NCBI RefSeq assembly: GCF_054482595.1
Contig: NZ_CM137008.1
DNA: 64,000 nt
Reading direction: 5' to 3' (one strand)
Shown here in pieces: positions 60,516-60,960 of this stretch (its first letter is position 1; the number at the start of each line of letters is the position of its first letter). Made by a program: the position numbers and the translations under genes. The notes beneath the pieces are model-generated. The model was given only the letters and a program-made list of their open reading frames with translations. It ran no database searches and was not told the DNA's origin.

Positions 60516-60960
60516 GCCTGTATGCCGGATAAGGCGCTCGCGCCGCATCCGGCATGAAATAAGGCGCACCGGGTCAACACATATGCCCGATGCGCAAGCT
60601 TATCGGGCCTACAGAGAGGGAAAGCTGCGTTTATTTGCGTTGGCAGACACCTGTAGGCCGGATAAGGCGCTCGCGCCGCATCCGGCATGAAATAAGGCGC
60701 ACCGGGTCAACACATATGCCCGATGCGCAAGCTTATCGGGCCTACAGAGAGGGAAAGCTGCGTTTATTTGCGTTGGCAGACACCTGTAGGCCGGATAAGG
60801 CGCTCGCGCCGCATCCGGCATGAAATAAGGCGCATCGGGTTAACACATATGCCCGATGCGCCATCTTATCGGGTCTTCAGGGAAAGCCGCGATTACTTGC
60901 GTTGGCAGATACCTGTAGGCCGGATAAGGCGTTTTACGCCGCATCCGGCAAGTTACAACA
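60516..60960. repeat. Tandem REP/BIME array, just over three copies of a 133-bp unit
   Basis: Identical ORF-track peptides in the same reading direction offset by exactly 133 nt (60590 vs 60723); each unit carries gccggataaggcgctcgcgccgcatccggc and gcccgatgcgcaagcttatcgggc palindromes. Confidence 0.9.

Follow-up and report, generated by a model that had tools for sequence, protein, structure and literature searches.

In the 64-kb stretch of DNA analysed here (the window), the gene sslE (yghJ) was located on the plus strand at 55953..60515 and was followed on the same strand by pppA, encoding a prepilin peptidase, at 60975..61784, both as annotated by RefSeq in strain XH990, which is 100% identical. 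The uncorrected open reading frame of sslE covered 55935..60515, and its stop codon, TAA, lay at 60513-60515. The A24 peptidase domains of PppA (Pfam) were complete from the ATG at 60975, and the longer frame 60723..61784 was an artefactual in-frame extension of pppA through the repeats that fill the spacer. Just upstream of this ATG, an A/C-rich pppA leader (AGTTACAACAAACAACCTTTAACC; 60951..60974, plus strand) showed few changes in all alleles, including that of E. albertii, and no recognisable Shine-Dalgarno sequence was read in 60951..60974. Co-transcription of sslE-pppA-gsp has been reported for ETEC, in a passage of PMC5012682 that cites Yang 2007, and for BL21(DE3) (PMC5435950), in strains whose spacer alleles may differ from the 3.3-unit allele of the window. 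The placement of the array inside the sslE-pppA operon by the original prediction agreed with these reports and with the common strand and order of the array and both genes.

The spacer between the two genes measured 459 nt and was filled by head-to-tail units of 133 bp. A single array at 60517-60950, with a period of 133, 3.3 copies, 93% matches and a score of 733, was detected by TRF, and no second large-period array was found in the 64-kb window. The tandem 133-bp array that had been predicted between sslE and pppA was thereby recovered, and its expected periodicity on self-comparison was found both by TRF and by the repeat search. The whole BIME-type array, as delimited by TRF, the repeat-family search and unit parsing (60517..60950, plus strand), comprised seven palindromic units, four y and three z2-like, in repeat units of 133, 133 and 129 nt. 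Within each, a linker of 29 nt joined a y-type REP to an inverted z2-like REP, after which came a linker of 40 nt; this order gave the two REP-type palindromes per unit that had been proposed.

When the copies were compared by an ungapped repeat search, the one at 60517-60649 was followed by those at 60650-60782 (99%, 1 mismatch) and 60783-60915 (75%), and by a fourth, partial copy from 60912. Unit 1 (type A, 133 nt; 60517..60649, plus strand), delimited by repeat search, unit parsing and folding, differed from unit 2 (type A', 133 nt; 60650..60782, plus strand) by a single base out of 133. Unit 3 (type B; 60783..60911, plus strand) had a length of 129 nt and, once gaps were allowed in the alignment, shared 88-89% identity with units 1 and 2. 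The earlier description of the copies as near-identical was thus correct for units 1 and 2 and did not hold for unit 3, a diverged variant. The latter showed 98-100% identity to the type-B (last full) unit of CB9615, E1V33, 88COLEC and A30 and, judging from this comparison, is the older terminal unit common to the 2.3- and 1.3-unit alleles.

All four y-type REPs lay on the plus strand. The first, y REP 1 (GTAT + GCCGGATAAGGCGCTCGCGCCGCATCCGGC + A; 60520..60554), was defined from its sequence, folding and allele comparison, and its reverse complement equalled the published E. coli REP consensus save for two loop bases and the GTAT change. The presence of GTAT for GTAG made its stem three pairs longer, and its hairpin was calculated at -23.4 kcal/mol vs -20.9 kcal/mol in units 2 and 3. 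Its core stem started at 60524 and its extended stem at 60521, 8 nt and 5 nt past the sslE stop codon, respectively. It was present in 22 of the 22 non-window alleles whose spacer sequence was inspected, E. albertii included. y REP 2 (60653..60687, 32/34 consensus matches) and y REP 3 (60786..60820, placed by comparison with the consensus) both carried GTAG. The array ends with an incomplete fourth unit made up of y REP 4 (60915..60950), whose loop is TTTTA. When reverse-complemented, 60650-60687 and 60783-60820 agreed at 32 of 34 positions with GCCGGATGCGGCGTGAACGCCTTATCCGGCCTAC, the E. coli REP consensus quoted in PMC12306157, and both mismatches were in the loop. Published criteria for a REP are GTAG 5' of the foot of the stem and a two-base mismatch inside the stem (PMC3333891); GTAG was found in y REPs 2, 3 and 4 and GTAT in y REP 1, and an AA/GC internal stem mismatch was found in all four, with hairpins between -20.9 and -23.4 kcal/mol. 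The y core motif occurred 13 times in the 64-kb window, at four separate loci, vs 1.6 expected, and the array region had a median of 5 and up to 14 matches per E. coli genome (megablast). CTCG and TTCA variants in the y loop region had been exchanged between units and strains; being located at the loop, they carry no information on RNA vs DNA structure.

The second palindromes were z2-like inverted REP 1 (TGCCCGATGCGCAAGCTTATCGGGCCTAC; 60584..60612), identified by the repeat search and comparison with canonical z2, z2-like inverted REP 2 (60717..60745) and z2-like inverted REP 3 (60850..60874, ending in …ATCGGGTCTTC, with the CTAC tail lost or degenerate), all on the plus strand. The y REPs carried plus-strand GTAG and the second palindromes ended in CTAC, and the two types therefore alternated in orientation. 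A canonical z2, TGCCTGATGCGCTACGCTTATCAGGCCTA, was present in the same window at 17183-17211; compared with it, the z2-like REP had a compensated C:G pair for T:A and a loop 1 nt shorter, with 26 identities (29 vs 30 nt, one gap). The identical z2 variant PU was also found in the yggR-ruvX spacer. The head-to-head linker of 29 nt lay at 60555..60583 and was repeated at 60688-60716 and 60821-60849, and the tail-to-tail linker of 40 nt lay at 60613..60652 and was repeated at 60746-60785 and, shortened, at 60875-60914 (plus strand in both cases). The 5' arm of the z2-like REP can alternatively pair with the sequence GGCGCAYCGGG of the head-to-head linker, which excludes the z2 hairpin; this alternative linker/z2 hairpin, of -16.5 kcal/mol in type A and -25.5 kcal/mol in type B, was used in the MFE fold. 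In the E. coli genomes searched, no match beyond the sslE-pppA locus was obtained for the head-to-head linker or, at E<=0.01, for the tail-to-tail linker. The 133-bp unit was also considered as a dispersed composite element and rejected, as only the z2 palindrome of a linker-z2-linker query recurred elsewhere in E. coli.

By its sequence features, the array is almost certainly a BIME-2-type cluster, in which y REPs alternate with inverted z2-like REPs. It resembled canonical BIME-2 elements (nomenclature of Gilson, Bachellier and Hofnung, per PMC3333891) in its alternating y and z2 palindromes, in its tandem, near-identical copies and in their strain-variable number. It differed from the canonical BIME-2 at 17141-17211 of the window, where the head-to-head linker is ~12 nt vs 29 nt in the sslE array; the tail-to-tail linker of 40 nt was similar in length to the 36 nt at 17101-17136 and different in sequence. 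BIME-2 linkers are described as varying in length and sequence (PMC3333891). BIME-2 elements are further marked by a short 'S' head-to-head linker and by s/l/r flanking motifs, and the term 'atypical BIME' could apply equally well to the sslE array, whose linkers were compared by length and sequence with others in the window. In the literature searched, no paper linked sslE or yghJ with REP elements, although the locus may figure in the BIME lists of PMC3333891 and PMC4550694, and no repeat_region features are listed in the copy of the MG1655 RefSeq record that was used.

The array region folded with -216 kcal/mol (z = -8.07), and none of 100 shuffles was as good; a chance origin of the array structure is excluded. 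A scan of 60000-61500 for hairpins with a U-tract gave no plus-strand intrinsic terminator and only two weak terminator-like sites on the minus strand, a number at or below the chance expectation. No promoter-like site was found between sslE and pppA in the same interval, vs 1.2 expected by chance. An internal promoter and an intrinsic terminator were thus both rejected, the scan of the transcribed strand being empty, and pppA would depend on read-through, since neither a promoter-like site nor a plus-strand intrinsic terminator was present in 60000-61500. As to Rho loading sites, no C-rich, G-poor stretch occurred in the array, where C/G was 0.6-1.2 in all 60-nt windows, so that loading of Rho inside the array was not supported; the A/C-rich pppA leader, of 24 nt, is too short to be judged in this respect. 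The Rfam model RF02564 (naRNA4), which represents a REP325-derived sRNA and has a y-linker-z2 layout, matched the array seven times, on both strands, with 27.9-37.0 bits, and every unit received such a sub-threshold match. The y half aligned well (y REP 4 alone reached 35.9 bits against it), and the second hairpin of the model was placed on the linker/z2 alternative hairpin. Membership of the array in naRNA4 was rejected on its best score, 37.0 bits, which is below the gathering threshold of 59.5.

The repetition was also visible in the open reading frames. Those at 60442..60690 and 60590..60823 had a C-terminal stretch of 54 aa in common, and the minus-strand ones ending at 60688 and 60821 were offset by 133 nt, as anticipated from the repeated spurious peptides that had first been noticed. 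Protein coding by these frames was rejected, none having a Pfam match.

Copy number was surveyed in 5,426 complete E. coli genomes, of which roughly 3,600 carried the locus, the allele frequencies being estimates from an evenly spaced genome sample and a coverage count. Degenerate spacers of 129-163 nt, with less than one full unit, were carried by ~70% of the locus-bearing genomes, 1.3 units (the K-12 type) by ~25%, and at least 2.3 units by ~5%, the 3.3-unit allele of the window being rare. Alleles of 4.3 and 5.3 units were found among the matches listed and were confirmed by TRF. A synthetic 8-unit query gave a confounded ranking of genomes, as single-unit genomes match every query unit, and the spans of the records were used. 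Across E. coli, the sslE-pppA spacer ranged from 129 to 733 nt. The suspected variability of copy number between strains was hence confirmed, with a range that runs from degenerate forms below one unit to 5.3 units, and a variable number of tandem BIME-2 units at a given locus has been described (PMC3333891). Strains 88COLEC (4.3 units) and XH990 (3.3 units) had the same SslE and PppA protein accessions, the only full unit of strain A30 was an A/B chimera, and in E400634 the K-12-type unit had expanded independently to 5.3 units. At the same site, E. albertii had 1.3 units and cryptic-clade Escherichia 2.3 units. A homologue search across genera found the sslE-pppA junction only in Escherichia; in Vibrionaceae, those sslE homologues whose 3' end is intact were followed by clear hairpin + T-run terminators, without pppA.

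These alleles suggest that the array was very probably amplified in place to its 3.3 tandem units. A 1.3-unit ancestor (y-linker-z2-linker-y) is very probably older than the split of E. coli and E. albertii. Since then, the 133-bp units have very probably recombined unequally in register, or slipped during replication, as is suggested by the chimeric unit and by near-identical strains one unit apart; the expansions and contractions produced the ladder of 1.3, 2.3, 3.3, 4.3 and 5.3 units, and internal deletions the 129-163-nt forms of most strains. A REP-associated transposase may have made an added contribution. TnpA-REP (RAYT, yafM) cleaves and recombines BIMEs in vitro and has been proposed as a driver of their amplification (PMC3333891). 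The sslE array shares with the substrates of this REPtron the y REPs with GTAG and a stem mismatch, which are required for binding; it differs in that no tnpA-REP gene adjoins it, and y REP 1, with GTAT, should not be bound according to published mutant data. Homologous recombination or slippage would explain the in-register chimeras more simply than TnpA-REP, two routes that cannot be told apart by sequence.

The closest characterised analogue was REP325, also called the naRNA1-6 array, which separates yjdM from yjdN in E. coli K-12 and is described by its authors as a six-unit tandem REP array of y and z2 elements in the yjdMN operon (bioRxiv 10.64898/2026.03.23.713779). Both arrays consist of tandem units of a y REP, a linker, an inverted z REP and a linker, and both lie between two co-transcribed genes, directly after the upstream stop codon and in the same orientation and order (MG1655). 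REP325 has a period of 100, 5.8 copies and linkers of 12 nt and 17 nt, and its z palindrome is longer. The sslE array, by contrast, has a period of 133, locus-only linkers of 29 nt and 40 nt, the C:G variant of z2 and the extra alternative hairpin. In the yjdMN operon, REP325 stabilised the upstream mRNA, cut downstream expression ~8-10-fold and gave a ladder of truncated transcripts, with a dependence on Rho that was seen only with the full array (bioRxiv 10.64898/2026.03.23.713779). These effects were shown by experiment. What a REP does nevertheless varies with its context, and mRNA half-life is not lengthened by REPs in every case (bioRxiv 10.64898/2026.03.23.713779). For tandem gene pairs with a REP, a genome-wide bias towards upstream expression has been described.

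The textbook case of REP stabilisation is malE-malF, with two palindromic units and no tandem array. These REPs were reportedly found by Newbury, Higgins et al. in 1987 to stabilise the upstream mRNA and to cause differential expression within the operon. As in sslE-pppA, they lie within one operon between a highly expressed gene for an exported protein and downstream genes for membrane machinery; the effect was demonstrated there and is inferred for the sslE array.

With a probability of roughly 0.7, the best overall explanation of the locus is a BIME-2-type array that was amplified in place and acts as a stabiliser/attenuator. The array would be transcribed within the sslE-pppA-gsp mRNA, where its hairpins, of ~-21 to -25 kcal/mol each, could shield the upstream sslE segment from 3'->5' exonucleases by blocking their progress. 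Being long, structured and free of ribosomes, the spacer may in addition cause partial termination or decay before pppA, in part dependent on Rho, and the joint outcome would shift the balance towards the secreted substrate, SslE, and away from the secretion machinery. On the analogy with REP325 (bioRxiv 10.64898/2026.03.23.713779) and with the classical malE-malF REPs, the chances that the array has such an effect on sslE relative to pppA-gsp appear about even. The stop-proximal y REP would probably be the main carrier of the effect, and extra units would at most strengthen attenuation.

The idea that the array sets the stoichiometry between SslE and the machinery was weakened by the majority of short-spacer strains and by strain 536, which has a spacer of 139 nt and makes and secretes SslE. 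The multi-copy state is dispensable, because ~70% of locus-bearing genomes lack one full unit and strain 536 secretes SslE. If anything is under constraint at this site, it would be the single stop-proximal y REP, which is kept in every sequenced allele, and the extra units are dispensable; the multi-unit state may be neutral, without demonstrable selective value. A dosage effect is plausible, since the Rho dependence of REP325 was seen only with the full multi-hairpin array; even so, a measurable effect of copy number is considered doubtful. It is improbable that BIME copy number serves as a heritable, fast-mutating rheostat in the style of a contingency locus. If it did, each added 133-nt unit would let less transcription pass from sslE into pppA-gsp and might make the sslE mRNA more stable still, strains with 0.x to 5.3 units would differ systematically in the ratio of SslE to machinery and in the level of SslE secretion, and the array could contribute to differences in SslE output, which are known among ExPEC strains. 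Variation of an adaptive kind is much less likely again.

A reading without any function, in which the array is a neutral or selfish repeat turned over by recombination or TnpA-REP, with a negligible effect on expression and a copy number set by drift, is a real but less likely contender. It would account for the degenerate forms of less than one unit in most strains, with at least 2.3 units in only ~5% of locus-bearing genomes, for the shifts in copy number between otherwise near-identical strains and for the secretion of SslE by short-spacer strains, and strains are known to differ freely in BIME-2 number (PMC3333891). It sits less well with the persistence of the stop-proximal y REP in every allele, including that of E. 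albertii, despite repeated deletions in the spacer. A highly structured, untranslated spacer of 459 nt (z = -8) is, moreover, unlikely to be transcriptionally silent, and the effects of REP325 were large (8-10-fold downstream and 3-160-fold upstream). The position of y REP 1 could also point to translation: terminating ribosomes that hit the first REP hairpin would stall and be rescued by tmRNA, with less SslE as a result. REPs within 15 nt of a stop codon have been linked to translational control, in the part of PMC12306157 that credits its reference 17, and the first REP stem begins 8 nt (core) or 5 nt (extended) past the sslE stop. In the alleles of the 536, 55989, EC488 and A42 type, the REP abuts the stop codon, as in yjdM-REP325. 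The work behind reference 17 is said to be that of Liang, Rudd and Deutscher, from 2015. Such a brake would lower SslE, opposite in sign to a stabiliser, and would leave the tandem units unexplained, and we regard it as unlikely. It would be compatible with the main stabiliser/attenuator explanation.

Two further readings were considered. As DNA, it could be a site for gyrase binding and cleavage, for a cruciform or for a nucleoid protein, and relieve or insulate the supercoiling generated by transcription of the 4.6-kb sslE and the downstream membrane-protein genes. Its y/z2 architecture would suit this role, BIME-2 elements being, as Espeli and Boccard are said to have reported in 1997, targets of gyrase in vivo. 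At 29 nt, the head-to-head linker is locus-specific and longer than the ~12 nt seen both in REP325 and in the BIME-2 at 17141-17211, and it may not retain the gyrase site; most strains, too, manage without the array. In addition, the nucleoid organisation ascribed to REP325 with HU and naRNA4 was not reproduced (bioRxiv 10.64898/2026.03.23.713779), and a role at the DNA level is judged very unlikely. Finally, the array could contain genes of its own, namely small proteins, a PppA with an N-terminal extension from 60723, a member of the naRNA4 sRNA family or a promoter that drives pppA from within. Open reading frames of 40-82 aa do overlap it, one of them in frame with pppA, and the naRNA4 matches, though weak, exist. 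Since 133 is not divisible by 3, successive units are read in different frames, and the open reading frames had no Pfam match and are absent in short-spacer strains. The A24 domains and the conserved start MLFDVF agree with a start at the 60975 ATG, the naRNA4 matches, at 28-37 bits, fall far short of 59.5 and occur equally on both strands, and promoter-like sites were absent where 1.2 were expected by chance. Taken with this evidence, genes within the array are barely credible, and the stabiliser/attenuator array remains the preferred explanation.

The value of the array as a discovery is small, since REP/BIME clusters and their behaviour (the BIME class, tandem amplification, strain polymorphism and stabiliser/attenuator action in operons) are already described. 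The operon codes for a mucinase that is a vaccine candidate, together with its type II secretion system, and the natural alleles of the array of ~0.5, 1.3, 2.3, 3.3, 4.3 and 5.3 units in similar backgrounds form a ready dosage series, with which REP number could be tested against termination and mRNA stability. For annotation, masking of the array is advised, as it yields spurious open reading frames and a false in-frame 5' extension of pppA. For typing and assembly, the locus is a length polymorphism with steps of 133 bp, which short-read assemblies may collapse.

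A tandem REP (repetitive extragenic palindrome) array of period 133 and 3.3 copies (93% matches, score 733) was detected by Tandem Repeats Finder at 60517-60950, as the sole long-period array within the 64-kb window. In an ungapped repeat search, the first two copies (60517-60649 and 60650-60782) were 99% identical, a third began at 60783 and a partial fourth at 60912. The original prediction of about three tandem copies of a 133-bp unit between sslE and pppA, with a periodicity visible in self-comparison, was borne out. The description of the copies as near-identical held for units 1 and 2, but not for unit 3, a diverged variant of 129 nt with 88–89% identity to the other two after alignment. 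The array region was 100% identical in E. coli XH990 and 13 other complete genomes. When the XH990 RefSeq annotation was mapped onto the window, sslE ended at 60515 and pppA started at 60975, so that the spacer comprises 459 nt (60516-60974). PppA translated from 60975 contained complete peptidase A24 domains (Pfam), and the flanking genes are thus those that had been named. The predicted fold of the spacer (-216 kcal/mol) was 8 standard deviations better than that of shuffled sequence. Neither a sigma-70-like promoter (promoter scan) nor a plus-strand intrinsic terminator was found in 60000-61500. Further upstream, the 5' part of sslE contains a 30-nt tandem repeat (56100-56173, 2.5 copies, 75% matches), which is likely to code for a repetitive linker downstream of the lipoprotein signal.

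Each unit is composed of a y-type REP of 35 nt (GTAG + GCCGGATAAGGCG-CTCG-CGCCGCATCCGGC + A), a head-to-head linker of 29 nt, an inverted z2-like REP of 29 nt (TGCCCGATGCGCAAGCTTATCGGGCCTAC) and a tail-to-tail linker of 40 nt, which sum to 133 nt, and the array ends with a closing fourth y REP (60915-60950, plus strand). The two palindromes of the unit, proposed earlier to be of REP type, were both confirmed as such. The reverse complement of the y REP matches the E. coli REP consensus GCCGGATGCGGCGTGAACGCCTTATCCGGCCTAC, as quoted in PMC12306157, at 32 of 34 positions, and both hallmarks of these elements, the GTAG tetranucleotide and the internal two-base mismatch (PMC3333891), are present. 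Compared with the z2 of a canonical BIME-2 (a cluster of REPs) at 17183-17211 of the same window (TGCCTGATGCGCTACGCTTATCAGGCCTA), the z2-like REP shows a compensated T:A to C:G change, and its loop is shorter by one base. Because this variant palindrome is also found unchanged between yggR and ruvX in other strains, the z2-like REP of sslE belongs to the dispersed family. The two linkers had no match elsewhere in 5,426 E. coli genomes, in which the z2 palindrome alone recurs. In strain 167 (locus L026, 5990-6095), the yggR-ruvX BIME carries the exact C:G variant z2 paired with a variant y REP (GTAGGTTGGATAAGGCGTTTACGCCGCATCCAACA) via a different linker. In the genomes lacking sslE, the best match to the linker-z2-linker query was z2-only, and its locus was identified for strain 167 alone.

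The y REP hairpins were predicted at -21 to -23 kcal/mol. Unit 1 has GTAT instead of GTAG, which makes its stem three pairs longer, and its core stem starts 8 nt past the sslE stop codon. An alternative partner for the 5' arm of the z2-like REP is predicted in the segment GGCGCAYCGGG of the head-to-head linker; the resulting hairpin (-16.5 kcal/mol in units of type A, -25.5 in type B) excludes the z2 hairpin of -13.5. The array is followed by a pppA leader of 24 nt (60951-60974, AGTTACAACAAACAACCTTTAACC), A/C-rich and with no recognisable Shine-Dalgarno sequence, conserved in all E. coli alleles sequenced and with three changes in E. albertii. This leader may serve to initiate translation independently of an SD sequence, or may bind Rho or S1 over a short stretch.

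The array has a BIME-2 architecture. BIME-2 elements consist of alternating y/z2 units, with tandem copies that are much alike at any one locus but differ in number between strains, and with linkers variable in length and sequence (PMC3333891). In the membership tests, the array qualified as a y REP and, linker length aside, as BIME-2, but not as Rfam naRNA4 or an intrinsic terminator. Its closest characterised relative is REP325 (between yjdM and yjdN, MG1655), in which the same order of y REP, linker, inverted z REP and linker follows the upstream stop codon. However, REP325 has a period of 100, 5.8 copies and linkers of 12 and 17 nt, in contrast to the period of 133 and the linkers of 29 and 40 nt of the sslE array. 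The naRNA4 model, built on the REP325 unit, gave 28–37 bits per sslE unit on both strands (threshold, 59.5 bits), so membership of that family was rejected and the likeness is one of resemblance only.

The proposed variation of copy number between strains was evident from the comparison of E. coli genomes, with spacers from 129 to 733 nt and up to 5.3 units. Spacers of 129–163 nt, with the first y REP intact and the z2 and last y REP partly deleted, were found in ETEC O6:H16, 536, 55989, C5, EC488, A42, NCTC10537 and MS 57-2. The longer alleles had 1.3 units (193 and 197 nt; A30 and K-12 MG1655), 2.3 units (326 nt; O55:H7 CB9615), 3.3 units (459 nt; the window), 4.3 units (592 nt; 88COLEC) and 5.3 units (733 nt; E400634 and relatives). 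In an evenly spaced sample of 60 records from the E. coli genome search, the sslE-pppA locus was absent in 20; the other 40 comprised 28 short forms (one with a divergent sslE, checked separately), 10 with 1.3 units and two with at least 2.3. In agreement with this split, 1,048 of 5,426 genomes (19%) contained at least one complete linker-z2-linker segment. The 3.3-unit form was present in at least 23 records, with a divergence of the flanks from the window of up to about 3%. The sslE 3' end or the pppA 5' end is missing from about one third of complete E. coli genomes, O157:H7 included. Some others, such as APEC E14033, have a divergent sslE whose 3' end was unaligned by megablast, with pppA and a 163-nt spacer present.

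The units fall into two types, A of 133 nt and B of 129 nt, with B invariably in the position of the last full unit, and the window array reads A-A'-B-partial. The order in 88COLEC is A-A-A'-B-partial, and its SslE and PppA have the same protein accessions as those of XH990, which points to a recent gain of the extra unit. A30 carries one full unit, a chimera of A and B as would be expected from an in-register unequal crossover, and in E400634 the K-12-type unit has expanded separately, with a higher-order period of 270 bp. Together, these three cases argue for in-register unequal recombination or slippage, and amplification by homologous recombination or slippage would be the simplest explanation. 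TnpA-REP, which recombines BIMEs in vitro (PMC3333891), is a possible alternative mechanism. A search of genome contigs with the SslE C-terminus yielded 10 loci. The element lies at the same junction in E. albertii (1.3 units) and in cryptic-clade Escherichia E1V33 (2.3 units), and it therefore predates the split of E. coli and E. albertii. The Vibrionaceae homologues (Enterovibrio, Grimontia, Vibrio; 52–57% identity to the C-terminal 299 residues of SslE) are followed, where the 3' end is intact, by hairpin-plus-T-run terminators, e.g., GGGAGCC-loop-GGCTCCC plus a T run, and no pppA homologue was found within 2 kb downstream. One of them (locus L023) has an early in-frame stop, possibly reflecting a pseudogene or a sequencing error.

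Regarding function, PMC5012682, citing Yang 2007, describes co-transcription of sslE, pppA, yghG and gspC-M, with the promoter located upstream of sslE, and tiling arrays of BL21(DE3) gave the same sslE-pppA-gsp co-transcription (PMC5435950). Since no promoter was found in the spacer, expression of pppA and the secretion genes requires transcription to read through the array. Deletion and Northern analyses of REP325 showed stabilisation of the upstream mRNA (3-fold to ~160-fold), attenuation of the downstream gene (~8-10-fold), a ladder of transcripts ending at successive hairpins, and a partial Rho dependence seen with the full array only and absent with fragments of 2–4 hairpins (bioRxiv 10.64898/2026.03.23.713779). 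Genome-wide, tandem gene pairs separated by REPs show an expression bias towards the upstream gene. By analogy with these observations, the sslE array would most likely act as a barrier to exonucleases, stabilising the sslE part of the mRNA, and as a leaky attenuator ahead of pppA, so that the secreted substrate, needed in abundance, would be favoured over the secretion machine and the peptidase, which is catalytic. Favouring an exported substrate over its downstream machinery is the logic of malE-malF. The stabiliser or attenuator role originally suggested is thus a reasonable one, matching the best available analogue.

The strongest candidate for a functional core is the stop-proximal y REP, which each of the 22 non-window alleles with compared spacer sequences retains. 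It also lies within the limit of 15 nt downstream of a stop codon that is quoted in PMC12306157 as the criterion for REP-mediated translational down-regulation; on this positional criterion only, such an effect, opposite in sign, would be a side effect compatible with a stabiliser/attenuator. A strong role of the extra units is argued against by their absence from the majority of strains, by the secretion of SslE in strain 536 (139-nt spacer), as stated in a passage of PMC5012682, and by the lack in the array of any C-rich segment poor in G, as is typical of Rho loading sites. The comparative data show that the multi-copy state is dispensable, and a purely neutral multi-copy state is a serious, though less probable, rival explanation.

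Tandem y/z2 units, within-locus identity, strain-variable copy number and intra-operon position have already been described for the class, of which the sslE array is an ordinary member. No paper tying sslE or yghJ to REP elements was found in a literature search, so the locus had not been singled out before. Its main value is practical, as a region to be masked in ORF calling, and the natural series of 0.5- to 5.3-unit alleles could be used to test the effect of REP dosage on termination and mRNA stability. The repeated spurious peptides noticed originally are explained by the array: ORFs 60442..60690 and 60590..60823 have a common 54-residue tail, the ends of the minus-strand ORFs are offset by 133 nt, and a Pfam search of the array ORFs gave no match. 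The mechanical ORF 60723..61784 is a false in-frame extension of pppA, running for 84 codons through the last 1.9 units because these have no in-frame stop codon; gene callers could mis-call the pppA start (RefSeq ATG, 60975) in multi-unit strains. The RefSeq annotations of NCTC10537, M9682-C1 and SCU-316 skip one locus_tag value between sslE and pppA (e.g., RS03875, RS03885), that of XH990 skips none, and the skip suggests a spacer feature formerly called and then withdrawn, or unlisted.

Other REP loci were observed in the window. The canonical BIME-2 at 17069-17240, used as the reference for z2 and linker lengths, lies just past ORF 16637..17062 (plus strand) in the spacer shared with the convergent ORF 17334..18218 (minus strand), and consists of a z2 iREP, a 36-nt linker, a y REP (GTAGGCCGGATAAGGCGTTCACGCCGCATCCGGCA), a 12-nt linker, a z2 iREP and the start of the same linker. 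At 28180-28262, a z1-like REP (GTAGGTCTGATAAGACGCGGCAGCGTCGCATCAGGCA) stands 11 nt ahead of an inverted y REP, a pairing reminiscent of BIME-1 except for its short linker. A lone y-type core is located at 7815-7824.
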